A stretch of DNA of 64,000 bases from an uncultured Spirochaetota bacterium (GTDB lineage Bacteria > Spirochaetota > UBA4802 > UBA5550), in NCBI GenBank assembly GCA_963827275.1, contig CAWHAA010000002.1, positions 160,001-224,000 on the forward strand, in the 5' to 3' direction. Made by a program: the position numbers and the translations under genes. The stretch's first letter is position 1. Each line of letters begins with the position of its first letter. Below, one piece after another: positions 618-40,227 of the stretch. The notes beneath the pieces were generated by a model that searched no databases, was not told where the DNA came from, and saw only the letters and a list, made by a program, of their open reading frames with translations.

Positions 618-3462
618 ATGCAAAGAAAAATCCTTGATTTTATATTCAACCTGTCGCTGCAGCGCGGGAAATTGCTGCTGGTCATCATGTCGATCATTAC
701 CGTCATCTTCGGCACATTTATCCCCCGGCTTATCATCTCGTCCTCGCAGCAAAACCTGATCCCCGCGGACGATCCGGAGCAGGCGAGATACATCCAGTAT
801 AACAAGGAATTCGGCTCCTCGGACAACCTGATTATCGTCCTCGACGGCGACAGCGACGCGTGCAAGGAGTACGCCGATGATTTTGCGCGGGAGCTCGAAA
901 AGGAGCAGAAATGGGTCAAGTCGGTATTTTACAAGATCGACGCCAGCGTGCTGCTGAAACGGGCGCCGCTGTATGTGCCGGCCGAAGATCTGAACAAGGG
1001 ATTCGAGTTATTGCAGAAGAAGCAGGGGATGATCGAGCGGGTTAAAAATATTTCCAGCCTGTATGCATTGCTCAATGAAATAACGGAAAGCTTTAAAGAG
1101 CCGAACAGTGAAATTTCCATCGAGGCGGCGACGAAAATAATCGCCTTTATCAATACCTTTTTTGCCGAATGGAACGACTGGATCATCAACACGAACCAGA
1201 TCAAGCTGAAAATCGGAGAAAAGATTTCACAGGCGGGGTTCCCGCAAATGGCGATGCTGCAGAGCGAGGGGTACCTGTTTTCCCGCGATTTTAAAATGAT
1301 GTTCCTGCTCGTTCAGCCTAAAGATTACGATGATGAAATAACCTATCTCCGGCCGTTCATGAAGGATATCCGCGCGGCCTGCGACCGGGCGAAACGCACG
1401 CACCCGGAATTACAGGACAAGGTCAAGGTGGCCTTTACCGGGATGCCGGCCCACGTGCTCAACCAGACCGAAATCATTTATTCTGATGTGGGACATGCGG
1501 CGATCGGCTCGGTCGTCATCGTCGCGCTCATTCTCCTCATCGGGTTCCGTTCTATCAAGAAAACCATTGTCGGGGTCATTCCCACCGTTGCGGGGATGGT
1601 CATCTCCCTCGGTATTTTAACGCTCTTCCTCGGGAAGCTGAACCTGATCAGCTCTTCCTTCCTGGCGGTCCTGTTCGGTATCGGGATCGATTTCAGCATC
1701 TATCTCCTCCAGCGAACGGAAGAGGAGCTGGGGAACGGGCTGTCGCAGAATGACGCGATATACAAGTCGGTCGTACTGACCAGCCGGTCCATCATCTCCG
1801 GGGGCCTCACCACGAGCCTCGCGTTCCTTGCGCTGGCGCTTTCAAAGTTCCAGGGGTACTCGGAGCTCGGCTGGGCCGCGGGCATCGGCCTCATCGTCGT
1901 CATGTTCACCACCTTTTTCATGATGCCGGCGCTGCTCATGAATATCCCGGTTGAACCGCGGATGTATCGTGTAAAGGAGACCATCAAGGAAGCGGGTATT
2001 TTAGAAAGGAAAGAAGATACACCTGGTGCTTATCGGCGTGGGCGTCATCATCACCATCGCCAGCATCATAGCCACGACCAGGCTCAAAATGGACTATAAC
2101 ATAATCAAAATGCTGCCGACGAAAACTGAATCCTCTATCTACCAGAACAGGATGGAAGAGGAGAGCGATTACAAGATGTCCTTCGTCATGATAACAGACA
2201 CCGATCTGGTGCGTTTGAAAGAGATCACCGAGAAGGTCAAGGCCCTGCCGACGGTCAGCAAGGTCGAGTCCCTGGCAGACCTCATTCCTTCCGACCAGGA
2301 AAAAAAGATCAGGATCATGAAGAAATTTAAACCGCTCCTCGGTGATTTCCGCATCGGGCTCAGGGACAATGACCAGATCGGCGCGGACTATATCGCCGCG
2401 CTGGACCGGATAAGCGTCTATTTCGAGGAAGCGCAGGAAAAGGCGTTTGCGGGGAGCCAGACCAGGCTGGTGGAGCAGATTGACCTTGTCATGAAAAACA
2501 TCGATGCCATCAAGAAAAAACTCGCGTCGGACAGGACCGGCATGGCCCTGGTACGGACGAGGAAATTCGAGAAGGAGCTTTTCGCGAATCTGGAAAAAGG
2601 GACCCAGCTCATCCGCGAAAGCCTGAACCCGGCCGTTATCACGGAGGCCACGTTCCCGAAAGAGATAATCAGCAGGTTTAAAAGCGAGAAGGGGACCTAT
2701 GTGGCAATGGTGTCACCGAAAGGCTCAATCTGGGATGTTGATTTTCTCGACACGTTCGTGAATGGCCTCAAAAAAATCACTCCGAATGTCACCGGGTTTC
2801 CTGTCACACACCGGGTCTATGTGCGGCAGGCGGCGACTGCGATATTTCAGGCAATGATGTATTCTTTCATTGTTATACTGATACTCCTGATAATTGATTT
2901 CAGGGGCCTCAGGGGGGTGCTCCTCTCCCTGCTCCCGCTCTTCATGGGGATGATGCTCCTCCAGCTGATGATGTTCGTGTTGAGAATTGATTACAATGTC
3001 GCCAATATCGCCGGGCTGCCGCTGCTGCTCGGGCTTGGCGTGGTCTATGGTCTCCGGATCGTGCATCGCTGGAGGGAGGACCCGTCCATTACCGCCTTTG
3101 CCGCGACACAGACAACGGGCAGGGGGCTCGCTTTCGCCGCGTTTGCAATCATAGCAGGCCTCATCAGCATAGTTCCCGCTCGTCATAACGGCGTGTCCTC
3201 TTTCGGCGTGATCCTGCTCATCGGGATCATAACCTGCATGTTCACGGCGCTTATCATTTTACCGGCGATCATCGACTATCTCTATGTCATGAAAAAAGGT
3301 GAAGAGCCGGCGGAGGAAAGCGCCGCGATACCCGCGGCGGACCCGGAGGGAAGAAAGCCGGGGGCCAGGCGCTCGTCAGCGAAGCAGAAAACGAAACCAG
3401 GCGCAAAGAAAAAAACAGCCGTGAAAAAGAAGGCGGCAAAGCCAGCTAAAAAGAAAAAATAG
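618..3462 (+). CDS. MMPL/RND-superfamily transporter (HpnN-like), split by a +1 frameshift near 2010
   Basis: ORFs 618-2099 and 2026-3462 give two MMPL repeats (TGMPA..., LFGIGIDFSIYL; TGFPV..., LLGLGVVYGL). Removing one A from AGGAAAGAAG restores ...ERKKIHLVLIG. Confidence 0.85.
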
Positions 3463-5405: not shown

Positions 5406-5434
5406 TTGACGGGACCGGATGGGTGCGATAGCCT
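5406..5434 (+). promoter_or_regulatory. Putative sigma70 promoter of the VanW-macroglobulin operon
   Basis: TTGACG-17 bp-TAGCCT, 26 nt before the VanW ATG. Confidence 0.45.
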
Positions 5435-5460
5435 GAATCCCTGACGCGCCCCGGTCATAC

Positions 5461-6192
5461 ATGATGGATTTTTTTAAAAAAACATCTGCCCTCATTTCCC
5501 TCTTCCTGCTCCTGGCAGGCTTCGCCCCGGCGCACCGCAGCCCTGCGGCATTCGGGGAGATGAGTGCCGCGGGCACGTTTTCATCCTCCATAGCGGGACA
5601 GGATGACAATGTCAGGCGCAATATCATGATCGCGGTCGGGAAGCTGAACGGGGCCCTGATTGCCCCCGGCGCCGTATTTTCATTTAACGATGCCGTGGGG
5701 GAAGGGTCCGCAAAAAACGGCTTCCTGCCGGGAAGGGTACTCTATCGCGACCGCGTGGCCATGGAACCGGGGGGCGGCCTCTGCCAGGTTTCATCAACCC
5801 TTTATAACGCGCTCCTCATGGCGGGCTGCGTAATTATAGAGCGACACCGCCACTTCCAGCCGGTGACGTACGTGCCGCTGGGCCTCGACGCCACCATCAA
5901 ATACGGCAAGAAGGACCTCAGGATTAAAAACCCGTACCGGCACCGCCTGAAAATCGAGATGAGCGCTTCCGATGCGAGTCTCAATGCCCGGGTGCTGTCC
6001 GAAGAAAGGCCGTCGTTCAGGTACGAAATATTCACAGAGGAAGAGGAACTGGCGCTGCCCGCGGCCGATGATGTCGAGAACATACGCCAGGGGATATCGG
6101 TCCATGTGTACCGGAAGCGGTACCGCGGTGATACCCTGCTGGAGAGCGCGCTGCTGTATAAAGATTATTATCCTCCCGTGTACACGCGATGA
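5461..6192 (+). CDS. VanW family protein, exported
   Basis: LNGALIAPGAVFSFN..VG, GGGLCQVSSTLYNA, IIERHRH, YVPLGLDATI, DLRIKN; N-terminal signal peptide. Confidence 0.92.
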   Translation: MMDFFKKTSALISLFLLLAGFAPAHRSPAAFGEMSAAGTFSSSIAGQDDNVRRNIMIAVGKLNGALIAPGAVFSFNDAVGEGSAKNGFLPGRVLYRDRVAMEPGGGLCQVSSTLYNALLMAGCVIIERHRHFQPVTYVPLGLDATIKYGKKDLRIKNPYRHRLKIEMSASDASLNARVLSEERPSFRYEIFTEEEELALPAADDVENIRQGISVHVYRKRYRGDTLLESALLYKDYYPPVYTR

Positions 6193-6205
6193 CCGGGAGG
6201 CGGGA

Positions 6206-6823
6206 ATGAAGGCGGCAAGGACAGGCGGGCTCGTGATGGCCCTGTTTTTTTTCTTCGCGGCAGGCGGTGACGTTTCCGGCGGCGCCAGCCCGGCCGAAGA
6301 CCCGCTGCTTGCGGAATGGAATGAATTTTCGAAACAACCTGAATGCAAAGCGCTCATGGCATGGCTCCGCCGGCAGGCGCTATCGCGCCTTACCGGCGCG
6401 CGGTGCGACGATCGACTTACGGTATCGACCCCTGACTATTTCGGAAAACTCGGGATGTTCATTACCCTGCAGAAAAAGAAAAAGGTGCGCGGCTGTTACG
6501 GATCGTTTTCGCACGGCATTGATACCATCGAGCCGTTGCTCCGGGATTATCTCGCCGGGGCCCTCACCAGGGACCTCCGGCATGAACCCCTTGACATAGC
6601 TGAATTTCCCGATACCGACATTATCCTGACGGTCACCTCGGCCCCGTTCGCCATTGATGATCCCGGGTCGGTCGACCTGCGCAGGTACGGGATTGTGGTC
6701 GCGTGCGGCGATGACCATGCCGTGTTTGTCCCTGCCGAGATCAGGAGCCTTTCGTCCCTGGAAAAAATAACGGCCGGAAAATCGTGCCAGGTTTCGTCAT
6801 TTGCCGCCGTTACGATTCGGTGA
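6206..6823 (+). CDS. AMMECR1-domain protein with N-terminal signal-like peptide
   Basis: GMFITLQKKKKVRGCYG (xRGCxG motif), D-x-R..PL...E, YGIVV...AVFVP; ATG 6206 after GGGAGG; hydrophobic LVMALFFFFAAG. Confidence 0.8.
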   Translation: MKAARTGGLVMALFFFFAAGGDVSGGASPAEDPLLAEWNEFSKQPECKALMAWLRRQALSRLTGARCDDRLTVSTPDYFGKLGMFITLQKKKKVRGCYGSFSHGIDTIEPLLRDYLAGALTRDLRHEPLDIAEFPDTDIILTVTSAPFAIDDPGSVDLRRYGIVVACGDDHAVFVPAEIRSLSSLEKITAGKSCQVSSFAAVTIR

Positions 6824-6870
6824 TGGTTCCGTCAGCCCTCTGGCGCAACATATAATTTCTGGAGGACACG

Positions 6871-9800
6871 ATGTGTAAGAAAATATTCTCCTGCCTCATC
6901 CTTGTTTCACTCGGCCTCATCCTCACGCATTGCGATACCGCCGGGGTCAAGCGCCTCGATGACGGGCGGAGCATATATCTGTCTGACGGCAAAAAGCTGT
7001 CGGCTAAAACGGGTATTGAGGGACACGTCATAGATGCAAAGACGAAGAAGGGGATACGGGACGCGCAGGTTGAAATGAAAAACGCCAACATGGGAGTCGG
7101 GTATTATACGCGTGAGACCGACCGGAACGGCTATTTCAAAATAGAGGATTTCATCCCGTATGTCAGGTACTCCGTCGAAGCCACAGCGAAAGGGTACGTA
7201 ACGTACCGGTCGACCGGACCGGTGACGGGAGGAAGCCATACATTTGCGCTGGCGCCGGAATCGCGGCTGAGCGGCACCGTCAGGAACAGGAAGGGAGAGC
7301 CGCTCCTGGGTGTGGAGGTTAAGCTCACCGCGTACGATGAACCGACGGAGGAGGGAGAGAACATCGTTTCACGTGCGCCGCGTATCGCCGCGACGGACGG
7401 CAATGGATCCTACGGGTTCGACAAGCTTCCCGCCGGCTCATACACGGTCCTGTTCACCTTCCCCGGGTGCATCAGTGAAACGGCGCAGGTGCGGAACATC
7501 AAGGAAGGCGAGAGCTTTGATCTTCCCATGGTAATGACGCGGCCCGCATCGGTGATGGGGAACGTTGTAATAGAGGGGCTCAACTCTCCGGCGATCAACG
7601 TGGACGTCTCAATCGAGGGACAGGTGACCCAGTCCGCGGCGACATTCCAGGACGGTACCTACCGGCTGGATGACGTAAAGCCGGGCACGTACAAGATGAC
7701 CGTCGCACACCAGGGGTTTTATGAGCTGACCGCGCATACGATAAAAATAAGCGAAGGTGAAAAGCGGGAGAACGTGAATTTTACCGTGAAGGCGAAGGAG
7801 CCCCAGGTCCAGGTATACGCGTACCGGTACACCTTTGCGCCGGGAGATGCCATTGAGTTCAATGTGCGCTCGTTGAGGCTGGAGACCCTGAAGGCGACAG
7901 TATACCGGGTGCCGATCGATATTCTGGTGCGGGGCGGGGTCGATGCGGACAGGCTTGATCCTGCGGCCGAGGGCTTCAAGGCGCTCTTCTCGTGGGACGA
8001 GCCGGTCAGGGAATTCGAACCCTATGAATGGCGGTACCAGTCGGTACAGGTGAAGAACCCCCTTTCCACCGGGGGCTACTGCATCGAGGTCAGGGGCGCG
8101 GGCAGGGTGATCAGCAGGAAGTTTTTCTCTCTTACCACCGTCGGGGTAGTGATGAAGCGCTCCCGGGAATCGGTCTTTGCCTATGTCACCAGCCTCGTGG
8201 ACAATACGCCCATCCCGGACGCACGCGTGGTGCTGTTCGATACCACGCCGCAAAAAAAGAAAGGGAAGAAGGCGACCTATGATCCGCCTGACCAGGTGGA
8301 GGACCTTCCCGTAAAAGCGCTGCTCCAGGGGAAAACGGACCGGGACGGCATCTGCCACAAGGGCTTCAGATCTGACCGGCATATTTCCGCGATCGTCATA
8401 GCCGGTGATGGCAGTTACGCCATCTGCAATACCGGGTCGCCGTCGTCGTTTGAGAAGGAGCAAAAGAAATATTTCATATACACTGACCGGCCCGTGTACC
8501 GGGCGGGAGACGCGGTGCATTACAAGATCATTGCGAAAAACCGCGAGCGGCGGTTCGTGCCGGTCGCCGGCGAGCGGTTGTATTACAGGATCGTGAACCG
8601 CGACATGGCAAAGACGGTCGCCGAAGGGGAAATGACGCTCGATGACTGGGGCACTGCGGACGGGGCACTGGCGCTGTCACGCGAAGCCCACCTCGGCGTG
8701 CATGAAATCATGGCGGGGCCGACGGTGAAAAACCTCTATAGCAGGGGGCGGTTCTATGTCGAGCAATACCGGAAGCCGGAATTCATCATAAAAATTATAC
8801 CGTCAAAAGATTATTTCATCAACGGCGACACGACCGAATTCAAGGTCGAATCGAAGTACTTTTTCGGCGCGCCGCTCAAAGGGGCCCTGGTGCAGTATCG
8901 GTTTTATGAAACGCGGCTCAGGGACGCCAACACCACCTACTGGTGGGAGCGCGATTATGGCGACAGCGCGCCGTACAACCGCATCGTCCTTGAAGGGGAA
9001 AAGTACGCCGATGACGAAGGGGTCGCCGTGCTGCGGCTCCATGCCGGGAACCTTCCCTATGACCGGGAGATCACCTGCGAGGCCACGGTGGTGGACCGCT
9101 CCAATGTCAGCATCACGGCCTCCGGCACGGTACGGATCGGGCGCGGGGAATATTACATCAAGATAGAACCGACCCGGAATTTTTTCGCCGCCGGCGAGAA
9201 AAAGGTCGTGGCGGTAAAGACCATGACCCATACCGGGAAACCGCTCAGTGCCCGGGTGAAGGTGGAGCTCTTCCGGTATATATGGAAGCCGTGGGAGCGG
9301 GTGTATGTCCATGACAGCAGGCCGCTCTATTCGGAAACGGCGACAACCGACAGCAGGGGGGCCGTGCTCATCGAGCTGCCGAAACAGTTCAGCCTGTACG
9401 GCGAATTTGACATGGTGGTCACCGGCACTGACCGGAGGGAAAACCGGATCACCGCGTCGCGGGTCATCTGGGTCTACGGTGCGGAGGGGTCAGCGGTGGC
9501 GTCGCGCTTTAAAAACCTGGAGCTGACCCTGGACACGGACGAGATGGCGAAGCCGGGCGAGGTCACCTGCCTCGTCAAGAGCTGCTTCACCGATGCGTAT
9601 GTGTGCCTCACCCTTGAAGGGAGGGACGTGTATGAATCGAAGGTCGTTAAAATGACGGGCAACATCGTCCCGGTGAAGTTCACCGTCAAAGAGGCGTACG
9701 CGCCGAACCTGTACGTGACCGCGTCCATGCAGCGGAAGCGGGCCCTCTATACCGAATCGGCCGGGATAACCATCCCCGTCAATGACACGGAGCTCTCCCT

Positions 9801-12246
9801 GTCCATTGAAACTGACAGGCAGAAATACCGGCCGGGCGATACGACGGTAGCGACGCTCAGGGCGCGTGACGGAAGCGGCGCGCCGGTCAGGGCCGACCTT
9901 TCCGTTGCGGCGGTGGACGAGGCGGTATTCCAGGTGCGGCATGACCACACCCCGCCCATGAAGGACTTCTTTTACTCGAAAATATCAAACTGGGTGCTGA
10001 CCAGCTATTCCTACCCGGTGACCCTGCTTGCCGGCGCCGCCAAGGTCGGCGGCGCAATAAAGGTGCGGGAGAAGTTTGAGGACACCGCGTTCTGGGCGGC
10101 GAAGGTCAGGACCGATGCCGACGGCGCCGCGCGGGTGAGCTTCACCCTCCCTGATAACCTGACGACGTGGCGCCTCACTGCGCGGGGACACGACAGGACG
10201 GGCCGGGTCGGGGAGATGCGCGCATCATTCCCGGTCACGCAGGACCTGATCGCGCGCATCGGGAAGCCGCGGTTCATGGTGGAGGGCGACACCATGGCGC
10301 TTATCGGCATTGTCAACAGCAATACCGGGAGGGGGCTCAGGCAGGTGGCGACCGAGCTGAAGGCCGACGGAACAGAGCTCCAGCCTGATGAAAAAACCGC
10401 CATCAGCCTTCCCGCGTTCGGGTCGGCGCGGCAGTACTATTTATACAAAGTGCCAAAAGAGAAGCGGGAGGTGACTCTCCAGTATACGGCGCGGGCAGAC
10501 CGGGAAGCCTCCGACGCGCTCACGCTGCCGGTCCCGGTTGAGCGGCGCGGCACTTCGTTCAAGCTCTTCGGCATCGGGGACATGGCGGGGAATAAAAGCG
10601 TGGTCATCGCGCCGCTTGCGGATACGGACGATTTCTCCTTCGTGCCGGAATCGGCGACCGTGTCGCTGAACCCCTCCCCGATAATCCAGATGCTCCGCGC
10701 GGCTGATTTCCTGAGCGAGTATCCTTACGGGTGCGTGGAACAGACACTGAACAGCTTTATCCCTAACCTCGCGCTGCAGAGGATGCTCCGGCAGAAGGGA
10801 TACGCCGGGTTCATCAGCGACAGGGCGAAGAAAAAGCTTGAAGACAAGGCCGGCGCGGGCCTCGCGCGCGTGCAGCAGCAGCAGAACGACGACGGGACCT
10901 GGGGCTGGTGGTCCGGGGACCGGGGCAACGGTTCCGTGACCGGGTACGTCCTGTATTCGCTCTACCTTGCTCGCGCGTCAGGCTACGCGGTGGACAAGGA
11001 GCGCGTTGCACGGGGCCTGGAGGCCGTTACCAGGTATTTAAAGAATCCCACGGTCGAGGAATGGGACGAGATATCCTACCTTATCTATATCAATGCGCTC
11101 TGGGGCCGCTGGGACCATGATGTTTTTCTCAGGGCGATGAAGGCGGGCGAACCGGGCGCGTACCGCCTGGCCTGTCTCCTGAAAGCGTTGTCACTCGCCC
11201 GTTCGCATGAGAAATTGGGTGAAGAGATGAAAAACGACATCAACGCCGCCATGCCCCGGCTCAGGGATTCGCTCCTGGCCCTGGCGAAAAAGGACGGACG
11301 CGGGATCTACTGGGGGAGCAGGGAACAAGACCGTTGGAGCTGGCCGGGCGGGGACCCGGAAGTGACGGCGCATGTGCTCTCCGCGCTGGTGGCATCGGGC
11401 GACCGGACGACCCTGCCGGCCCAGATCGTCAGCTCGCTCTGCGGCCGTGGACGCGGCGAGGCCTGGAATTCAACAAAAGAGACGGGGACCGTCATGCTGG
11501 CCCTGTGCGGATATATTGAAGCGACCGCCGGCGCCGCCGTACCGAAGGGTACGGTGCGCTTTGCCATGGACGGCAGGACAATCGCCGACATTCCCTATGA
11601 TCTTGAAAAGCCCGGGGACCCTGAACGGTACACCAGAAAAATTTCCCTTGCCGGGAGCGCGCCGCGCTCCTCGTTCGCCATCGCGGCGGACGGGAACGCC
11701 GGCGCGGACGTAAGCTTCCAGGTCGTGATTGACGGGACGCTCTATTTCAGGGAGAAGGGATTGTCCCTTCTGAAATCGGAAGAGCGGGGCATCGGCGCTC
11801 TTTCAAACGGCATCACAATCACCAGGACCTTTGCCGCCATCACCAGGGTCCGCGATGCGCATAATAACGAGTACATGGTGCCGCAGAGCCTTGACGGGAC
11901 CAGGGCGGTCCAGGTGGGGGACGAGATGCTGGTAAAGGTGAAATTCTCTGTGCAGGACGACTTCCAGTACCTGGTGCTGGAGGACTATCTCCCCTCGGGA
12001 TTCGAGGTGACCAGGAACAGCGCCTACGACGACTACCGGCCGTATGTTCACATGGAGCGGAGGGACAACCGGATGGTGTATTTCTTCACCGGCCTCAAGA
12101 AGAACGAGGCATACGAGATCGCCTATGTGATTCGGGCCGAGCTGCCGGGGAATTTCATGGTTCGGCCGTCGCGGATGGAATGCATGTACGAGCCGACCAT
12201 CCAGGGGTGGGCGGCGCCGGCCGTTGTTGAAGTGAAGAAAAAATAG
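6871..12246 (+). CDS. Alpha-2-macroglobulin family lipoprotein with intact thioester motif and N-terminal carboxypeptidase-regulatory-like repeats
   Basis: YTDRPVYRAG, FYVEQYRKPEF, LSVAAVDEAV, VREKFEDTAFW, LPDNLTTWR, YPYGCVEQ, QNDDGTWGWW, LEDYLPSGFE, MYEP; lipobox-like LILTHC. Confidence 0.95.
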   Translation: MCKKIFSCLILVSLGLILTHCDTAGVKRLDDGRSIYLSDGKKLSAKTGIEGHVIDAKTKKGIRDAQVEMKNANMGVGYYTRETDRNGYFKIEDFIPYVRYSVEATAKGYVTYRSTGPVTGGSHTFALAPESRLSGTVRNRKGEPLLGVEVKLTAYDEPTEEGENIVSRAPRIAATDGNGSYGFDKLPAGSYTVLFTFPGCISETAQVRNIKEGESFDLPMVMTRPASVMGNVVIEGLNSPAINVDVSIEGQVTQSAATFQDGTYRLDDVKPGTYKMTVAHQGFYELTAHTIKISEGEKRENVNFTVKAKEPQVQVYAYRYTFAPGDAIEFNVRSLRLETLKATVYRVPIDILVRGGVDADRLDPAAEGFKALFSWDEPVREFEPYEWRYQSVQVKNPLSTGGYCIEVRGAGRVISRKFFSLTTVGVVMKRSRESVFAYVTSLVDNTPIPDARVVLFDTTPQKKKGKKATYDPPDQVEDLPVKALLQGKTDRDGICHKGFRSDRHISAIVIAGDGSYAICNTGSPSSFEKEQKKYFIYTDRPVYRAGDAVHYKIIAKNRERRFVPVAGERLYYRIVNRDMAKTVAEGEMTLDDWGTADGALALSREAHLGVHEIMAGPTVKNLYSRGRFYVEQYRKPEFIIKIIPSKDYFINGDTTEFKVESKYFFGAPLKGALVQYRFYETRLRDANTTYWWERDYGDSAPYNRIVLEGEKYADDEGVAVLRLHAGNLPYDREITCEATVVDRSNVSITASGTVRIGRGEYYIKIEPTRNFFAAGEKKVVAVKTMTHTGKPLSARVKVELFRYIWKPWERVYVHDSRPLYSETATTDSRGAVLIELPKQFSLYGEFDMVVTGTDRRENRITASRVIWVYGAEGSAVASRFKNLELTLDTDEMAKPGEVTCLVKSCFTDAYVCLTLEGRDVYESKVVKMTGNIVPVKFTVKEAYAPNLYVTASMQRKRALYTESAGITIPVNDTELSLSIETDRQKYRPGDTTVATLRARDGSGAPVRADLSVAAVDEAVFQVRHDHTPPMKDFFYSKISNWVLTSYSYPVTLLAGAAKVGGAIKVREKFEDTAFWAAKVRTDADGAARVSFTLPDNLTTWRLTARGHDRTGRVGEMRASFPVTQDLIARIGKPRFMVEGDTMALIGIVNSNTGRGLRQVATELKADGTELQPDEKTAISLPAFGSARQYYLYKVPKEKREVTLQYTARADREASDALTLPVPVERRGTSFKLFGIGDMAGNKSVVIAPLADTDDFSFVPESATVSLNPSPIIQMLRAADFLSEYPYGCVEQTLNSFIPNLALQRMLRQKGYAGFISDRAKKKLEDKAGAGLARVQQQQNDDGTWGWWSGDRGNGSVTGYVLYSLYLARASGYAVDKERVARGLEAVTRYLKNPTVEEWDEISYLIYINALWGRWDHDVFLRAMKAGEPGAYRLACLLKALSLARSHEKLGEEMKNDINAAMPRLRDSLLALAKKDGRGIYWGSREQDRWSWPGGDPEVTAHVLSALVASGDRTTLPAQIVSSLCGRGRGEAWNSTKETGTVMLALCGYIEATAGAAVPKGTVRFAMDGRTIADIPYDLEKPGDPERYTRKISLAGSAPRSSFAIAADGNAGADVSFQVVIDGTLYFREKGLSLLKSEERGIGALSNGITITRTFAAITRVRDAHNNEYMVPQSLDGTRAVQVGDEMLVKVKFSVQDDFQYLVLEDYLPSGFEVTRNSAYDDYRPYVHMERRDNRMVYFFTGLKKNEAYEIAYVIRAELPGNFMVRPSRMECMYEPTIQGWAAPAVVEVKKK

Positions 12247-12257
12247 AGGGTGCGCAT

Positions 12258-12470
12258 ATGAAACCAAAGACAATACTCATTATCGTGATCGTCGTGCTCC
12301 TGACGATATTCGCGATGCAGAATACCCACGCGGTCGTTGTCAATATGCTGTTCTGGCATCCGGATTTTCCCCTGATTATCCTGGTGCTGGTGTTATTGGG
12401 CGCAGGGCTTGTCGCGGGATACCTTGCGGGGGGTGCCGCCCAGGTCAAGAAGAAGGAAAAAGAGTATTAG
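12258..12470 (+). CDS. LapA (lipopolysaccharide assembly protein A)-domain small membrane protein
   Basis: IFAMQNT..V.VN.LFW...PL..L pattern; two TM segments; 70 aa. Confidence 0.8.
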   Translation: MKPKTILIIVIVVLLTIFAMQNTHAVVVNMLFWHPDFPLIILVLVLLGAGLVAGYLAGGAAQVKKKEKEY

Positions 12471-12473
12471 CGC

Positions 12474-14549
12474 GTGAGAAGGCTGCTCCCTGCGCTCATC
12501 ATTGCCGTCATCGCGCTTTCCGCTCCCATGCGGGCGGCGGATGATGCCGATCCGGTCGTCGTCGTGCGGGTCCTTTCAAAGCAGGTCCGCCTTTTAAGCG
12601 AGGGCGTATTGGAAGAGATCGTCATATCGGCGGATGATGATGCGGCAATCATTGATGAGATCATGCACCGGCAGGAGCGCGGGAAGAGCATCACGATCAG
12701 AATGGATAACGGCGTGCCCCGCGTTGCGATAGACGCACAGCCCGTGACGGGTCCGATCGCGCTCTCGATCAGGCCCGGGCCGGACGGCGGCACCTGCAGG
12801 GTCAGGCTTTCGTCCGAGGAGCGTACCTTCCCGCTCCCCTTTTCCATCACGGGCAGTCAAGGGGAGCTCCGGTGTCACGTGCGGGAGCGGCTCTCCCGGT
12901 ACGCGGTCGATTCAGCCCTCGCGGAATACGGCGGGGAATTCCGGGATGACCGGGAAGCGGTGCTGGCGCTTGCCCATGTCATCAGGGCGCGGTATTTTTT
13001 CATGAAACGGGCGCCGGCTCACGGCGACGCGGATTTTTGCGACCTGGCGCACTGCCAGGCGTACCGGGGCAGGATACGGGGCGGGGCCCCGCTTGGCGAT
13101 GGATGGACCATTGACCACGAAAAACTTTCAAAGAACCTTTTCTTCAATTCTCGCTGCGGCGGGAGCATCTTCAGCGACAGCGTGTTCGGCAGAGGACCGC
13201 GCCCAGCCGCGGCGGCACCGGCCGCCAGGGACTGGCTCTACCGCGAGGGGTCCTGGCTCTGCCGTGACGCCGCGTCCCGGTGGGAGTGCACGATACGCGG
13301 TGAGGAACTCGGGCGGATCGTCTTCCCGGAGCGCGGCGCGAGCGGGACAGGCGCGCCGCGCTTTGAATATGACCGGGGGATGCTGGTTGTCCGTGTTCGC
13401 GGCGGCGGGAGCGGGACAGTCATCCCCGTGGAGACCTTCAGGCTTACGGTAAACCGTGTCCGGGGATGGAATTTCATAAAGAGCAATAACTTCGAGATGA
13501 CTGAAGAGTCGGAGGGTGAAGGAACGCGGTACCGGTTCCGGGGGGAGGGGCTGGGTCACGGTGCCGGTCTCTGCCAGCACGGCGCCGCCGCCCTGTCGCG
13601 GCGCGGGTACAATCGCTACGAGATAATAGAACACTATTTCCCTGACCTGCAGTTTCGGGCGCCCCGGAACAAACCGGCCCTGCCGCCGGGACTCTCATAC
13701 TGTATTGTTGACCTGGCCTCGGGAAACCCCCTGGAAATGAGCCACGGCCGCGACTTTTTAAAGAGAAGGGTGCCTCCCGGTTCCATCTTCAAGCTCATCG
13801 TTGCGCTGTATCTCGCGGCTGAACGCCCGGACCTCTTCTACGATTATACCTATGACTGTGCCGGAAAAAACAGAGGCGACCATCGCATGCCGGACCGGTG
13901 CTGGGACCCGGCCGGACACGGCACGGTCAGGATAGGGGATGCGGTGGCGCATTCGTGCAATCTATATTTTGCGTCGCTCTATGACAAAATACCGGAAAAG
14001 AGATTCAGGATCTTTTATGAACGCCTGTCCCGCTCCCTCGGGATATCGTCCGTGCTGCCGGAGGTCGCGGATGAGCGCGGCTGGTCGAAGCTCCTTGCAG
14101 GACTCGATTCCCGGCTGTCATTCCCGGTGGGTGATTATATCCGCCTTGCGATGTACCTGGATTGCGACCGGCGCCCAGAAGGGTATGAGAAACAGGACCC
14201 GGCCGGCCCGGCGCTCCCCGAGCGGAGAGCGCTATTCAAGTCAATGAAGCGCCTGTTTGTCGACGGGACTGCCTCACGTCGGTCAAAGGACCCGGCCGGG
14301 CGCGGTACTGACGGCATCCTCGAGCAATGGGAGGGGCGCGTTCTCGCATCGGGGCGGCATGAGTTCTGGGGAAAGACCGCGACTATCGCAGACGGGACCA
14401 ACAGCGCCCTCGGCTACGGGGTCTTCATCGGCGGGAGCGGCACGACCGGCATTGTCGCTGTCGCCAGGAGGTCGAGCGGGCGGATGGCGGCGCGGTGGGC
14501 GCGGATCGCGCTGATACGCTATATCGATAACGCGCGGCCGTCACGCTGA
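12474..14549 (+). CDS. SpoIID/LytB lytic transglycosylase domain fused to a penicillin-binding transpeptidase-like domain
   Basis: SpoIID: ALAEY, DFCDLAHCQAYRG, GHGAGLCQHGA...IIEHYFP. Transpeptidase: PGSIFK (SxxK), CW...GHG, HSCN (SxN), GKTAT (KTG-like). Signal peptide present. Confidence 0.85.
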   Translation: MRRLLPALIIAVIALSAPMRAADDADPVVVVRVLSKQVRLLSEGVLEEIVISADDDAAIIDEIMHRQERGKSITIRMDNGVPRVAIDAQPVTGPIALSIRPGPDGGTCRVRLSSEERTFPLPFSITGSQGELRCHVRERLSRYAVDSALAEYGGEFRDDREAVLALAHVIRARYFFMKRAPAHGDADFCDLAHCQAYRGRIRGGAPLGDGWTIDHEKLSKNLFFNSRCGGSIFSDSVFGRGPRPAAAAPAARDWLYREGSWLCRDAASRWECTIRGEELGRIVFPERGASGTGAPRFEYDRGMLVVRVRGGGSGTVIPVETFRLTVNRVRGWNFIKSNNFEMTEESEGEGTRYRFRGEGLGHGAGLCQHGAAALSRRGYNRYEIIEHYFPDLQFRAPRNKPALPPGLSYCIVDLASGNPLEMSHGRDFLKRRVPPGSIFKLIVALYLAAERPDLFYDYTYDCAGKNRGDHRMPDRCWDPAGHGTVRIGDAVAHSCNLYFASLYDKIPEKRFRIFYERLSRSLGISSVLPEVADERGWSKLLAGLDSRLSFPVGDYIRLAMYLDCDRRPEGYEKQDPAGPALPERRALFKSMKRLFVDGTASRRSKDPAGRGTDGILEQWEGRVLASGRHEFWGKTATIADGTNSALGYGVFIGGSGTTGIVAVARRSSGRMAARWARIALIRYIDNARPSR

Positions 14550-30483: not shown

Positions 30484-33115
30484 ATGAAACAATTAATAGT
30501 GATACTGTGCGCCTTCCTGCTCGCGGGGATCGGCGCCGGCGCAGCGACCTACCGTGGAAACAAGATAAACATGTTCGGCAACTCGCCCGAATCGCTGGGA
30601 AGGGGCGGAACGGGCGTGGCGTCATCCGGCGCCGAGCTGCTGTACCTGAACCCCGCCGCGATAGCCGATGCAGAGCGCATCGGCGCCGGGCTCCAGTTCG
30701 GCTCCCTGCCGCTGCCGACGCGGTTCTATGACGGCGGGCTCTCCCTTGCGGTGCCAAGCTCCTACGGGGTGTTCGGCGCTTCGTTCAGGTATATGAATTT
30801 TCCGGACCGCTTCGACTGGAAGGAAGGCTACAGCGTGAGCGTGGGCAACGCCCGCGACCTGACGAGGCGCCTTCTGCTCGGGTTTTCGCTGAGCTTCCTG
30901 TACGCGCACGACGCGGGCGACGTCGTATTACGCGGGCGGCAACATCGGGTTCATTTACAAGTTCCCGAGCACGGGAAACAGGTACGGCTTCTGCCTCCTT
31001 GACCCGAAGATAGGGCTCGCGCTGCATTTCGGGTACCCGTTCGGCACAAGCCCCCGCTATTCGGACATGAACGACGTGACCCTCGGGTATACGTTTAAAT
31101 TTTTCAGCATCCCTCATTTCAGCATCGCGTGGTACAATGACTTCACGGTCCTGAATTACCGTGAGTTCCCGGTGAAGTTCGGGCTCGAATCGGTGATATA
31201 CGATATCGTGGTGGTCAGGGGCGGGTTTGTGGTGCCGCACGCCTACAATGAGGGGACCTTCACCACGGGCATCGGCGTGCGGCTCAACACCGACAGCTTT
31301 ACGGGTTCGTTGAATTATTCGATAAATTTCTATCCGGGAATAACAATGACGCATTATCTCGGGGTGAATGTTGAAATCGGCAGGCTGGACCGCGAGCCGC
31401 CTGAGACCGCGATACGGCCCGACAAGGAGCAGATTTCCCCGAACCATGACGGCCTCAAGGACTACGTGCTGTTCCATCTCACCGTAAACGACTGGAGCAG
31501 GATCAAGGGATGGAAGCTCCAGGTCCTTGATGCCGGCGGCCAGATGGTCAAGGATTACTCGATATCCGAACGCGACCTTTCTGACCGGCTGACGGCGCAG
31601 GAATTTTTCAAACGTCTCTTTCAAAAACGCGAGTCGATGGTGGTGCCCGAAAAGGTAATCTGGGACGGGACGGACATGAAGGGGAAGAACGTGCCGGACG
31701 GCGTCTATTCATTTACGTTCAACGCATGGGACGCGCGCGACAACATAGCGGCATCTAAATCGGGGACCGTGGTAATCGATACCACGCCCCCCGAGATACT
31801 GCTGGACGGCAGCGAAGACCTTTTCTCGCCCAACGGCGACGGAAGGAAGGATGCATATGTGATCGGGCAGAGGATAAAATGCTCGCAGGACGATGAATGG
31901 ACCGCCGGATTCAGGGACCCGGCCGGGAACACCGTGAAAAAATTTAACTGGGCCGGCCCGGCGGTGCCACCCCGCGTGGTCTGGAACGGGAAGGATGATT
32001 CGGGAGCTGACGCGCCGGAAGGGCTTTACACTTATTTCATAACCTGCACCGACAAGGCAGGCAACAGCGCACACGCCGAGATCCGCGAGATCACCCTTAC
32101 CAGAAAATATGAAATCGCCGACATCACCCTCTCCGGTGAGTTCTTTTCATTCGCCCGGGACAAGTCCCTGAACCTGTTCCCGGCGCTCTCAAGCGCCTAC
32201 GGCCTCACCGAGTGGAAGGTGGTCATCCAGAACCAGAAGCTGAAAATCCTGAAAGAGATAACAGGCGCGGAACAGGTCCCGCGCATGATACCGTATGACT
32301 GCCTGGACAGCGACGGCTCGCGCCTTGCGGACGGAGTGTACTACGCGAGCCTCGCCGCCTCGTATAAAAGCGGCAATGCGCCCGAGTCATTTAAAAAAAT
32401 GTTCGTGATTGACAGCACTCCCCCCCGGCTCGCCGTTTCCCACTCCCCCGGGCTTTTTTCGCCCGACGGCGACCGCGAAAACGATATGCTGAAGATCCAG
32501 GCGAAGGTACGGGACGATACCGCCATACAGACCTGGCGGATAACGATATACGCTTCCTCGGGTGAGGTCTTCAAGACCTTTTCCGGCAAGGGTCCGGTCC
32601 CGGAGGAGATCATGTGGGACGGACTCGGGGACAATCTGGATATTGTCGAGTCCGCAGCGGATTATAAAATTGTCCTTGAAGCGACGGACGCGGCGGGCAA
32701 CAGCGGCAGCTCCGACCCTGACCGGCTCGAGGTGGACGTGCTCGTGCTGGTGACGGAGCGGGGACTGAAAATACGCATCAGCAACATCGAGTTCCCGTTC
32801 GGCACCGACGAGATCAAGTACCGCGGCCGGTTGATCCTTGACCGCGTGTTCCAGATACTTCAGAAATATGAAAACTATGATGTCCTCATAGAGGGCCATA
32901 CGGACGATATCGGCAAGGAGGAGTACAACCTCGAGCTGTCCGAGCGGCGGGCGAAAGCGGTCAATGATTTTCTTGCCGGCAGGGGAATACGGATCGACCG
33001 GCTGTCGTTTGTCGGGATGGGCGAGACGGTCCCCCTCTATCCGAACATCAATGATGAAAACAGGAGGCGCAACCGCAGGGTTGAATTCATGCTGATAAAA
33101 AAGGAACGGGAATGA
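30484..33115 (+). CDS. Exported multidomain protein: N-terminal beta-barrel-like region, FlgD-Ig-like repeats, C-terminal OmpA domain; +1 frameshift near 30918
   Basis: LGRGG..LYLNPA N-terminus; three (I/F)SP(N/D)xDG...WDG/WNG repeats; IEGHTD...NLELSERRA...NRRVEF; frames 30484 and 31067 join at GCGGGCGACGTCG. Confidence 0.85.
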
Positions 33116-34500: not shown

Positions 34501-35478
34501 CTACTCTGAATAAAATATCTTCAGCAGCGGCAGGCGCTTTTTTACCTCCGGCGCGTTGAGCGGGTAAATTGAAAGGATTTTCTTTCCGCCCCTGGCGACG
34601 GCAATGGTGTAGGGCTGTTTCAACACGCGCGACAGGTGGTAAAAAGCGGCAAGCTCGGACAGGTCTTCCGCCCAGGAGAGGCTCCCGTAGAGTGAAACGA
34701 ACGGCGATCCGGAGAGTTCCGCATAGACGGCCGCCGCACTCGAAAGGTTCAGTTGCGGCGCGCTGAGGCCGTAAAACGCCACCTTCCCTGTGAACAGATA
34801 ACGGCGCTTTGGGACATCATAGTCATTCCATACGTTTCTGGTAAAATCGTTCCCGGCGGTTGTAATCCTGAAATGACGTTTATACTGGCGGTCGGTGTAG
34901 GGGGTGACCGGTTCGATATAATCAACCAGGTGGGTCGCTTCATGCAGGAGGATATACAGGAACCCGCTATATTTTGAGCCGCAGTCGATGGTGATTTCAT
35001 ACGACGGGTCATCGGGCCTGAAGCAGGTCCGCTCCTTTTCGGTAAGCAGCGCCGATATGCCCTTTCCCAGTACCGACGGGTTGAATACCATGACCGCGTA
35101 CACGCGGTCGTCCCGGTCAACGACCCATTCCGTAAGGCCGCTTCCCTTGAAATTCTTAATAAAATAGATGCCGATAAGCCTGCCCTTCATGAGCTTTCGG
35201 TGGCGCGGCGGCAGGTCGGACATGGCCTGCCGGATTGACGCCATCTCTCCCGGTCCGGGAAGATACGGTTCGTATTCGGGCGCGTTGTCCAGCTTTTTCA
35301 GATACTCCAGCAGAAACGGGGGGGGCGCGGCAACGCGCGCAGCAAGCAACGTGCCGGGGTTAAAGCCGTACGACTCGAGGACGCGGGACGACTCGCGGCG
35401 CACGCCGTCATCGCATCCGCAGAGACACACGGCCCCGATGGCAATGACAATCAGCTGTATGAGAACGGTCCTTTTCAT
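34501..35478 (-). CDS. Putative lipoprotein with zincin HExxH motif
   Basis: Lipobox CLCGC; YILLHEATHLVD; downstream SLYG...WAEDLSE. Confidence 0.7.
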   Translation of the reverse strand: MKRTVLIQLIVIAIGAVCLCGCDDGVRRESSRVLESYGFNPGTLLAARVAAPPPFLLEYLKKLDNAPEYEPYLPGPGEMASIRQAMSDLPPRHRKLMKGRLIGIYFIKNFKGSGLTEWVVDRDDRVYAVMVFNPSVLGKGISALLTEKERTCFRPDDPSYEITIDCGSKYSGFLYILLHEATHLVDYIEPVTPYTDRQYKRHFRITTAGNDFTRNVWNDYDVPKRRYLFTGKVAFYGLSAPQLNLSSAAAVYAELSGSPFVSLYGSLSWAEDLSELAAFYHLSRVLKQPYTIAVARGGKKILSIYPLNAPEVKKRLPLLKIFYSE

Positions 35479-37791: not shown

Positions 37792-39263
37792 TTAGAAGCT
37801 GAACATTAAGCCGGTGTGGTACTTGTAGTCCATGGAAGCGGTGGCGCCTTTCCACTTGGTCTGGTGCCTGCCGAACTCGAAACCGAGGGTCAGGTAGTCG
37901 TTCATGAACCACTGCGCGCTGGCAAGGATCGCCTCGTTCCAGAGAATGGTGTTTACAGGGATGAAGCTCTTGTTGCCCTTCTTGCCTCCACCGTAACCGG
38001 CGGCAAGCATGACGGGGATCGGGCCGATTTTTCTCAGGTCGAGCACTAACTGGCCATAGCCGCCCTGCATCGGGACGCCGAGCATTTTTGTGCCTGCATA
38101 ATTTTCATACACGCCGGTGCCAAGGCCCACGCCAAAGGTGTCCATGTTGTTCCCGCGCCAGTACGTGGCGATCAAAGATACGAGGGACACTGAAATCTTG
38201 GTGAAGGCCTGTGCCGAATACGATTTGGTAATTCTGCCAAATTTTTGCGGCAGAGTTTGACCGAGAATTGTTGCAGCAATGGGATGAATCCTGACCAAGA
38301 TACCTAAATTGGCAAAGGTAAAAGCGTGTTTTTCAAGCTGGTAGTGGCCGCTGCCGCCCAGGGTTATGTCAACCAGTGAGTGCGGCTTCATGACAAAAGT
38401 GAGCCGCGCCCGGCCGCCCGGGTACCTGCTCGCTTCGCCCGGTCCGCGGTCATCCATCACAACGCCGTTGACGCCGGGATAGAGGTTGAGGATATCGCTG
38501 TTGCACTGTTAGCAACACGTGTAGCGTCAGCCCCGCCCATTGCGCGGGCGGCGGAAACTTCAACCGTCAGGTTGTAGTTTTCATTACCGACCTTCTGGCC
38601 GAGGGTAATCTGCGTTTCACGCTGGAACAGGTTACCGTTCTGGCCGAACGGGATATAGGTCACCGAAACCGGCTGGGCCGGCATGGCCATGAGGACCGAC
38701 CAGGTCTGACCTATGAGGAGGAACGTGCCGGTTGACGCCCAGTCGAGCTTTGCATACGCGTGGCGCATGGTGGGCATGCCGGAGCGCTCTCCCGTGCCGG
38801 AAGTAGAAGCGTCGCCCCAGAAGTCCAGCTCAATATTGGCCATGGTGTCTGCCCCGAGCACCCTGGGACCGGTAATATTCAGGCCAAGGCGGGTTGAACG
38901 CATGTCCATCACAAAAGATCCGTTCCGCTGTGATTTGGTCTTTTTGAGGGTAAATTCTCTCTGATTTGCTGTTTTCGGAATTGCTAATGGATTCCAATAT
39001 ACATAGTCGTTTGCGGCCCAGAACGGACCGGATTCGTTTGTAACATCGTTCGTATTATAGACCATGTCGAATTTAACGAAACCGTAGAGCTGGGCTTTCA
39101 AATAATCGCCGCTGTAGATCATCAACTTTTCTTTGCCTTTCGGCTTTACCTGCTGAATGGGCTCTACCACTTCTGGTGCTTTCTTTGCCTGCGCGAAAAG
39201 GTCCGTGCCGGAAATAATGAATGCAGCCAGGAGGAAGAGCCCGAAAATGTGTTTACGTAACAT
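37792..39263 (-). CDS. Outer membrane porin, DcaP-like, frameshifted near 38480-38530
   Basis: Signal peptide; LYGFVKFD, STRLGL, IELDF, MRHAY, LIGQTWS; C-terminal GLMFSF; GGAGG RBS; ORFs 38457-39275 and 37792-38460 overlap. Confidence 0.78.
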
Positions 39264-39564
39264 AAAATCCTCCAAAACAAATTTTTTAGCGAATTTTGCA
39301 TATGCTTAAAATAAATCAAACATTTTTTGTAACAAATGGTAAATTATTCAGGGAGATACCATTACCCTGAAACGTGGAGGTACAGGCCATTACGAGCGTA
39401 ACAAAGAGATTTGTGCCGGGTTTTTTGAGCAAATTATTGGATAAAAAAATCCCTTGAAATCAATACTATTAATACGGCATGGCGGCAGATTGTTTAATGG
39501 TCACGACGTATCGGGAGTATCCGGAATGATCCGCTTTGACCAATGACACTATGTGAAATACCCT

Positions 39565-40206
39565 CTAATTGCTTTTTTCAAGGGTTTCAACTGCTTTATC
39601 GACTACCGGTATCCATTCGGAATCCTTGAAATAGGTTTTTGTCTTCTTTAAAAATTCCAGCTCGTCCTCCCTGGTCTTGCCGCTTTTCGTCAATATGCCG
39701 CAATAGGTGGTGCCGTACATGAACGACTTCAATAAGTTATAATAATGGAGCTGCGCCTTGTCGCCGTTCTGCTCGATGTTCTGGTACAGGTTTTTCATCT
39801 GGTTCTCGATTACCAGGGCGCCAATGTACAGCACCTGGTTGGGCGCGAGTTCGACTACCGTGCTCTGGATCGCGGCCGCGTCATAAAATGTGTTGTAGCT
39901 GTTTTCTGTCTGGGTGAAAAAGGAGGCAACGGCCGCGTATTTCCCCGGCTTTGCGTTGATGAGATAGGCGTAATCCCCCCTTGTGTAATTGCTGGGAATG
40001 ATCTTGTTCCCCAGATTGTCCCCGTCTTTTTCATCGAGCTTCACAAAGTAGATGGTTTCGGGCTTGTTGCGGAAGATGCTCAGGGTGATGGTTTTCACCG
40101 ATATCCCGATGACCGAGCTATCCTTGTCATCGACGACCCGGAGGTTTTTCGGAAGGCCGCATCCGAGCGCAAACATGACGATCAGGCACAACGCTGTTTT
40201 TTTCAT
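39565..40206 (-). CDS. Putative lipoprotein of unknown function
   Basis: MKKTALCLIVMFALGC lipobox; AGGAGA RBS. Confidence 0.75.
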   Translation of the reverse strand: MKKTALCLIVMFALGCGLPKNLRVVDDKDSSVIGISVKTITLSIFRNKPETIYFVKLDEKDGDNLGNKIIPSNYTRGDYAYLINAKPGKYAAVASFFTQTENSYNTFYDAAAIQSTVVELAPNQVLYIGALVIENQMKNLYQNIEQNGDKAQLHYYNLLKSFMYGTTYCGILTKSGKTREDELEFLKKTKTYFKDSEWIPVVDKAVETLEKSN

Positions 40207-40227
40207 AACGAGTCTCCTGGGATTATA

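Follow-up and report, generated by a model that had tools for sequence, protein, structure and literature searches.

A conserved VanW-AMMECR1-alpha-2-macroglobulin-SpoIID locus of Spirochaetota, interpreted as a probable Yfa/Mag-system variant

A stretch of 64,000 nucleotides from an uncultured Spirochaetota bacterium (GenBank assembly GCA_963827275.1, contig CAWHAA010000002.1, positions 160,001 to 224,000 of the forward strand; the whole stretch is referred to as the window) carries a cluster of five genes built around a bacterial alpha-2-macroglobulin (A2M). From 5' to 3', the genes encode a VanW-family protein, an exported-type AMMECR1 protein, the A2M, a small membrane protein with a LapA domain, and a protein that joins a SpoIID domain to a penicillin-binding protein (PBP) transpeptidase (TP) domain (Table 1). 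Coordinates and strands were re-derived, and the five open reading frames (ORFs) were found to be co-oriented with gaps of 13, 47, 11, and 3 nt, as claimed in the initial annotation, made from the sequence alone. A hydrophobic N terminus was present in each product, with signals judged by eye, in agreement with the claim that all of the products are exported or membrane bound, which stands as a prediction. The pyruvate kinase gene (pyk) lies 72 nt upstream of vanW on the same strand, and ruvA lies downstream, convergent and with a 9-nt overlap with the SpoIID-TP gene. The spacing and conservation of the five genes indicate that they are likely one operon.

Table 1. Features of the A2M gene cluster, numbered from the first letter of the window
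Feature	Position	Strand	Support or detail
Putative sigma-70-type promoter, TTGACG-17-TAGCCT, in the pyk-vanW gap	5406..5434	+	8/12; relatives
VanW-family protein, 243 aa, predicted exported L,D-transpeptidase, putative triad C108/H131/D143	5461..6192	+	Pfam 4e-42
Exported-type AMMECR1, 205 aa; RGChG (R95-G99, C97), DxRa (D123, R125)	6206..6823	+	Pfam 5e-16
Bacterial alpha-2-macroglobulin, 1791 aa, predicted lipoprotein (C21)	6871..12246	+	Pfam domains
Minimal bait loop, residues 1050-1066; invariant G1055, K1058, R1066	10018..10068	+	Anchor span
Thioester motif C1288-V-E-Q1291	10732..10743	+	Context YPYG-CVEQ
LapA-domain small membrane protein, 70 aa	12258..12470	+	Pfam LapA_dom 1.6e-10; genus-level insertion
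SpoIID lytic-transglycosylase domain plus PBP transpeptidase domain, 691 aa	12474..14549	+	Transpeptidase Pfam 4e-7; structure

The same 301 Spirochaetota genomes were searched for AMMECR1, VanW, A2M, and the SpoIID-TP fusion, with clade cutoffs of E ≤ 8e-44 for exported AMMECR1, ≤ 1e-72 for VanW, and ≤ 7e-127 for A2M. The clades to which the A2M, VanW, and exported AMMECR1 of the window belong were found in identical sets of 28 genomes, which comprise 27 of the 46 genomes of the window's order and one genome (G315) from outside it. The other 19 genomes of the order, two of them from the same genus, had none of the three clades. One fragmented genome (G093) had VanW and AMMECR1 with no A2M match. 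The SpoIID-TP fusion was present in 25 of the 28 carriers and in 0 of the 273 other Spirochaetota genomes. Gene order was counted in 39 orthologous loci, one per genome, with the loci that had enough flank as denominators. AMMECR1 preceded A2M in 35 of 36 informative loci, as did VanW in 31 of 36, and SpoIID-TP was downstream in 25 of 37. VanW and AMMECR1 thus stay next to this A2M clade in other genomes, a point on which the initial proposal of a module depended. The gene for the LapA-domain protein, initially counted as part of the cluster's core, was present in 10/10 same-genus loci and 0/27 others; it is a genus-level insert, not core. In one locus an aldehyde dehydrogenase gene (L005:15483-16928) lies between the A2M gene and lapA, and a similar ORF occupies the same place in L037, which has further inserts between the VanW, AMMECR1, and A2M genes. 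The closest named relatives of the A2M were from Spirochaetota and Leptospirales metagenome-assembled genomes (68 to 72% identity). No VanW-AMMECR1-A2M locus was seen on the plasmids of 2 inspected A2M matches of 40 listed.

Related loci also occur at a greater distance. A profile search recovered AMMECR1 proteins of a second tier, whose N termini are of the export type and which carry the motif AVLLPGEA[KR]T, and a metagenome scan with 11 of them as queries gave 18 loci, two of which (L103 and L104) encode identical proteins. VanW, A2M, SpoIID, or transpeptidase adjoined AMMECR1 in 14 of the 18, and a recognizable A2M was present in 9. In all four misses AMMECR1 lay <600 nt from the contig start; the downstream genes of one of these (L101) were unrelated, and another (L106) was a weak match. 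The order of genes varied, from VanW-AMMECR1-A2M-SpoIID in L094 to A2M-VanW-unknown-TP-SpoIID-AMMECR1 in L099, and in L095 the TP gene was divergent from AMMECR1-A2M. The protein between VanW and TP in the six-gene module of L099 (L099:6703-7716) has 337 aa and no Pfam match. The metagenome A2Ms were 24 to 30% identical to that of the window, and their contigs ranged from 40 to 67% GC. In the ESM Atlas, look-alike clusters were most frequent in Melainabacteria, Thermodesulfobacteriota, and Armatimonadota; this is no more than a lead.

The insertion of lapA, the aldehyde dehydrogenase gene, and other genes, together with the breaking of the block in some genomes, is what might be expected of a chance cluster of envelope genes that share no function and are inherited en bloc. 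However, the genes are gained and lost jointly in a patchy pattern, are copresent even after unlinking, and recur in different orders beside A2Ms that are only 24 to 30% identical, and a chance origin would be extremely surprising.

Previous studies have split bacterial A2Ms into thioester-bearing type I proteins with PBP1C and thioester-less type II proteins in six-gene operons (PMC3735191, PMC5764988). In trees of 42 to 43 rows, in which YfaS was a long branch, seven type I proteins were set apart from all others (support, 100 and 99); the window A2M grouped with YfaS and Yfa-type proteins, away from type I. The 15 AMMECR1-linked A2Ms formed one group in FastTree (support, 87). A quick IQ-TREE run split them weakly, 13+2; the constrained single-group tree scored higher and was not rejected, and a single origin of the AMMECR1-linked A2Ms is compatible with the trees. 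The position of the window clade as sister to all other type II A2Ms was likewise not rejected (AU test, P = 0.64).

Consistent with the initial annotation, which had reported neither PBP1C nor a recognizable YfaA, YfaT, or YfaP, there was no PBP1C gene at the locus, and no match to BiPBP_C, DUF1175, DUF2135, or DUF2138 was found in the 92%-complete host genome. DUF1175, DUF2135, or YfaA was found in 0 of 43 clade loci, and VanW or AMMECR1 was found in 0 of 12 Yfa-type loci, which were picked by their DUF genes. VanW and exported AMMECR1 stand in for DUF1175 and DUF2135, and the two accessory sets are mutually exclusive. It had also been argued that an A2M with a thioester and a SpoIID partner but no PBP1C fits neither class. 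This combination turned out to be common. DUF1175-A2M operons were present in other spirochaetes and on a Meiothermus plasmid, mostly with DUF2135 and with separate TP and SpoIID genes, and the GCxEQ thioester is kept in all 10 Yfa-type A2Ms of the tree that are not from Escherichia coli; the absence of a thioester is therefore no group-defining feature. The textbook pairing of a thioester with PBP1C, and of its absence with Mag, turns out to be a proteobacterial special case. The proposal of a third A2M module survives only in the sense of a distinct type II-side sublineage, which has an accessory pair of its own and whose bait is short. The module is not an unrelated third class, and a variant form of the Yfa/Mag (type II) system is the better interpretation.

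Two further observations concern the Yfa-type operons. Those of other spirochaetes (L113-L115, L120, L117) encode a protein of 470 to 610 aa, with one DUF3352 match and two proteins without a Pfam match, which perhaps replaces YfaA/MagB. Genome G044 has a complete thioester Yfa-type operon plus an A2M of the AMMECR1-linked clade, with the VanW-AMMECR1 pair on another contig (L065, L066 [G044, G050]; L059, L079).

The window A2M has the Pfam domains MG2, BRD, A2M, TED, and bMG10 and three N-terminal CarboxypepD_reg domains, and a lipobox-type Cys near residue 20 was present in 24 of the 31 A2Ms of its clade. The intact CVEQ thioester motif reported initially was confirmed in the sequence, and the thioester pocket, as described for ECAM (PMC4498604), is also intact (Y1284, Y1286, and M1772 and Y1773 of the C-terminal ECMY motif). 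For the bait region, groups were set by neighbor or clade before length was measured. Between D1016 and W1075, two conserved anchors on either side of the bait region, the span was 58 to 60 residues in 31/31 A2Ms of the AMMECR1 clade, four distant ones included, versus 77 to 141 in 19/19 Yfa-type and orphan relatives; it was 72 in ECAM, 75 in YfaS, and 68 in one spirochaete type I protein, while the anchors could not be placed in the other five type I proteins. The bait lysine, K1058, was invariant in 31/31. As a rule, the bait region of an A2M shows poor conservation and determines the protease range (PMC8267569). The short, conserved bait with its invariant lysine suggests a narrow or dedicated trigger, and the lineage appears to pair a minimal, fixed trigger with a thioester that still looks functional. 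Since the bait is only ∼12 residues shorter than that of ECAM, trapping is still possible. Such a bait provides a natural test of a bacterial macroglobulin as a specific sensor or tether versus a broad trap.

It is possible, if unlikely, that the A2M serves as a covalent envelope scaffold, in which VanW joins a lysine of the A2M (K1058 or the C-terminal one) to peptidoglycan, or the thioester reacts with a peptidoglycan amine or with its own bait lysine, tethering the membrane to the wall, and SpoIID-TP opens room for the 200-kDa protein. The invariance of the bait lysine fits such a role, L,D-transpeptidases are known to tether proteins via Lys residues (PMC12729407), and in engineered human A2M the thioester can cross-link a bait lysine (PMC8267569). 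The C-terminal residue was Lys in 21 of the 31 clade A2Ms compared to 12% of 1215 long ORFs of the host genome; as a tether signal it was rejected, being also common in the controls (7/20 Yfa-type or orphan A2Ms and 3/7 type I proteins) and lost in several clade members. Furthermore, the protein tethering reported is that of YkuD-type enzymes, with no VanW case in the literature examined, and the window A2M retains the whole pocket that shields the thioester in trap-type A2Ms.

Other A2Ms were seen in the host genome and among the loci surveyed. A second, unrelated A2M on another contig (G000:C8:146017-152142; 2041 aa) has the thioester motif HECAEQ and no recognized PBP1C or Yfa partner, and its branch in the tree is long. 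Type II-like A2Ms with a thioester were also seen standing alone (L107-L111, L119, L123, L124, L088); they have long, charged baits (span, 79 to 141 aa) and no recognized partners, several of their contigs being short.

VanW had been regarded in the initial annotation as a domain of unknown function. It is a second family of L,D-transpeptidases with a Cys-His-Asp triad (PMC11348318; review, PMC12729407), and this triad is intact in the window protein, with the His and Asp assigned by conservation. The three residues were invariant in 20/20 clade members, the triad was invariant in 40/40 canonical PG4-VanW-G5 proteins, and its spacing was the same in 9/9 further copies. By analogy with the family, VanW would make 3-3 cross-links. 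The host genome has one YkuD-type L,D-transpeptidase elsewhere. No fusion of VanW to A2M was found among the best 120 of 2269 longer VanW matches up to 2000 aa, which is a weak test. A distant VanW (E ∼1e-27) was present in twelve genomes of genus g99 (G176, G190, G208, and others) that have neither this A2M clade nor exported AMMECR1. With the A2M locus, diderm VanW proteins gain a context.

The SpoIID-TP protein matched TIGR02669 at 6.5e-14, which is under the cutoff of that model, and SpoIID was also assigned from structure. A model of the protein (pLDDT, 85.4) has a SpoIID domain, with Clostridioides difficile SpoIID (5i1t) as the top Foldseek match, and a class B PBP transpeptidase domain. 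Its residues H183/C189/H193/C194 line up with the SpoIID zinc ligands H134/C140/H145/C146, and E151 is putatively catalytic, corresponding by spacing to the catalytic E101 (PMC6221140). The transpeptidase motifs are S437-x-x-K440, S494-C-N496, and K634-T-A; SxxK and SxN were invariant in 19/19 fusion proteins. Family knowledge suggests that the SpoIID domain would cut peptide-free glycan and that the transpeptidase domain would make or trim 4-3 links. In E. coli YfaQ, the Pfam SpoIID domain is in the C-terminal half, and the N-terminal part aligns to the transpeptidase domain of the window protein across SxxK and SxN (BLAST E, 0.007; hhalign, 86.8%, E of 4e-6). This alignment identifies the fusion, at the level of sequence, as a domain-swapped relative of YfaQ/MagE. 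SpoIID-TP is thus not the new A2M partner that had been supposed: the same two domains, in swapped order, make up YfaQ/MagE, and Yfa-type operons often split them. E. coli YfaQ itself (L075:3149-4798) keeps SxxK, with SCG in place of SxN and no KTG match, and has the appearance of a SpoIID fusion with a degenerate transpeptidase. YfaQ/MagE is thus, by its domains, a transpeptidase-plus-SpoIID protein with motif-intact relatives.

Across 135 AMMECR1 sequences, C97, G99, and D123 were invariant. RGChG and DxRa have been proposed as the AMMECR1 active site, with the conserved Cys, which projects into a cleft, as the proposed catalytic residue (PMC2034487). The model of the window protein (pLDDT, 92.6) had archaeal AMMECR1 (1zq7) as its only clear fold match (Z, 10.7; root mean square deviation, 5.9; 161 residues aligned). 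Canonical AMMECR1 copies are kept elsewhere in the host genome, and the AMMECR1 fusions found were with Memo/LigB only (3 matches). A complex prediction for AMMECR1 (residues 30 to 205) with A2M (residues 310 to 1130) scored 0.00 versus a mark of 0.32 and is evidence neither way. AMMECR1 is widely conserved and biochemically unsolved, and a periplasmic setting with few candidate substrates would make its chemistry directly testable.

What AMMECR1 does in the module bears on two further explanations. In the first, the bait would be too short for stray proteases, and firing (or renewing) the thioester upon damage to the envelope would be the dedicated task of AMMECR1, acting as a cysteine peptidase or as a thiol relay. 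Every AMMECR1-linked A2M has the short, conserved bait of invariant length, in a region where conservation is usually poor (PMC8267569), no other neighbor is as constant as AMMECR1 (35/36), and its cleft Cys has been proposed to be catalytic (PMC2034487). However, the literature searched gave no peptidase reaction for any AMMECR1, and the G044 genome has AMMECR1 beside VanW and apart from A2M, which equally fits a peptidoglycan substrate; this explanation seems quite improbable. In broader terms, a bacterial complement-like system, with a one-lysine-loop bait that is fired or anchored by dedicated partners and AMMECR1 as a cysteine enzyme on a peptide or thioester, strikes us as rather improbable. 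If true, it would provide the first substrate class for AMMECR1, a family conserved up to humans.

In the second explanation, AMMECR1 would act on peptidoglycan rather than on the A2M, removing or trimming stem peptides for SpoIID and VanW and so filling the place of DUF1175, which is NlpC/P60-like. An amidase has to act before SpoIID can (PMC6221140), L,D-transpeptidases require tetrapeptides (PMC11348318), and the module has no amidase or carboxypeptidase. The AMMECR1 gene follows TP-SpoIID in L099 and L100, stays with VanW in G044, and is mutually exclusive with DUF1175. On the other hand, a published description has DUF1175 as inactive (PMC10318531), the carboxypeptidase could be the transpeptidase domain itself, and unlinked amidases may exist in the host genome; we consider this proposal very improbable.

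We lean toward a conserved module in which a narrow-trigger trap, the short-bait thioester A2M, is combined with peptidoglycan patching by VanW and SpoIID-TP and has exported AMMECR1 as its dedicated partner. This interpretation starts from what was directly established (gene content, linkage, co-occurrence, intact motifs, the short bait, and the exclusion of DUF1175/DUF2135), and the conservation of catalytic motifs in all enzymes of the module counts in its favor. Only a restricted range of proteases or effectors would trigger the A2M, which would be lipid anchored in the periplasm. If it behaves like other members of its family, cleavage of the bait would expose the thioester and lead to the capture of a nearby amine. 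VanW, the predicted L,D-transpeptidase, and SpoIID-TP, with predicted glycan cutting and cross-linking, would patch the wall with 3-3 and 4-3 links. Exported AMMECR1 would replace the Mag accessory proteins as the macroglobulin partner. The genomic context suggests that it may bind A2M and use Cys97 on a peptide or thioester substrate and that the role of the module may be envelope defense against proteases or peptidoglycan-targeting effectors. The mag operon protects Pseudomonas aeruginosa from some peptidoglycan-targeting type VI secretion effectors (PMC12663445), MagA, MagB, and MagF bind MagD directly (PMC5764988), and MagC/DUF1175 binds peptidoglycan (PMC10318531).

Several points weigh against this interpretation. 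A bait of ∼15 residues may be too short or too buried for any protease trapping. Of seven foreign VanW proteins, three were active (PMC11348318), and MagE, the YfaQ equivalent, has been described as cytoplasmic and outside the Mag complex (PMC3735191). The third transpeptidase motif of the fusion is KT[AS] (KT[AS]T), not KTG; KTGT was present in 7 of 9 split transpeptidase genes checked. The fusion is missing from 3 of the 28 carriers, VanW or SpoIID-TP is relocated elsewhere in genomes G022, G242, G054, and G053, and the VanW-AMMECR1 pair of G044 is apart from A2M. The cutoffs behind the identical 28-genome sets were taken post hoc from gaps in ranked lists, and related genomes are not independent; the co-occurrence is therefore a pattern, not a statistic.

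The initial annotation had placed the five genes behind their own promoter. This claim stands in part: the candidate in the window matches at 8 of 12 positions and was absent from a consensus scan, yet the five closest relatives have better -10 boxes at the same place, where a conserved GAATTG is followed by TTGAC[GT]-16/17-TATRMT at the same distance, with a perfect TATAAT in one of them. The pattern was not seen in four other same-genus loci scanned (L036, L037, L038, L071). As the scan placed no terminator in the pyk-vanW gap, read-through from pyk may transcribe vanW. Three RNA runs compared with the locus gave short, foreign-looking matches only.

Some neighboring genes differ between the window and its relatives. 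A frame change at ∼2015-2080 divides the upstream MMPL/RND transporter gene (618-3462) between two ORFs; the gene is a single ORF of ∼945 aa in four relatives, and the split is an assembly error or a pseudogene. A gene of ∼600 aa (DUF4139/DUF4140 in L002) that precedes pyk in L002, L004, L001, and L053 is missing in the window. Farther along the window are an OmpA-family protein with FlgD-Ig/CHU_C-like repeats (31067-33115) and ORFs with no Pfam match at 1e-5 (34501-35478, 38457-39275, 39745-41241, 48743-49603, and 53005-53961).

No description of VanW or AMMECR1 with A2M was found in the literature searched, which included few subscription papers; the tables of Budd et al. 2004 may already list thioester-bearing yfaS-type genes. 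The module is apparently undescribed, and its distinctive features are the VanW-AMMECR1 pair and the short bait. Like the VanW-family L,D-transpeptidases Ldt4 and Ldt5 of C. difficile, the window protein has a VanW domain with Cys-His-Asp at the conserved positions; unlike them, it is short and without PG4 domains, comes from a diderm, is tied to an A2M operon, and has a predicted activity only. The exported AMMECR1 shares its fold and the RGChG/DxRa motifs with AmmeMemoRadiSam protein A (1zq7, PH0010) but has a hydrophobic export-type N terminus, scores 44 bits compared to 99 and under the cutoff of TIGR04335, and has VanW and A2M as neighbors in place of Memo and radical SAM proteins.

Among A2M systems, type I (E. 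coli yfhM/ECAM-pbpC and Salmonella Sa-A2M) resembles the module in its lipoprotein nature, CxEQ thioester, YPY and ExMY pocket, and "trap and repair" logic, whereas the window A2M is on a separate branch (support, 99 to 100), with no PBP1C in the locus or genome and a bait span of 60 versus 72. The thioester Yfa-type operons of spirochaetes and Meiothermus (DUF1175-A2M-DUF2135-TP-SpoIID; L065, L112-L121, L087) share with it GCxEQ, the side of the tree, and, in most, transpeptidase and SpoIID partners; they differ in having separate TP and SpoIID genes, the DUF accessories, no VanW or AMMECR1 (12/12), and a bait span of 77 to 113. The Yfa/Mag systems (E. coli yfaA-yfaT-yfaS-yfaQ-yfaP and P. aeruginosa magABCDEF) are likewise multigene envelope operons with a YfaS-side A2M, a transpeptidase-like and SpoIID partner (YfaQ/MagE), and no PBP1C. 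In comparison with them, the window A2M keeps its lipobox and thioester, has the extra N-terminal CarboxypepD_reg domains and a bait ∼15 residues shorter than that of E. coli YfaS, the fusion reverses the order of the YfaQ domains and retains SxxK and SxN, and the place of DUF2138, DUF1175, and DUF2135 is taken by VanW and exported AMMECR1.

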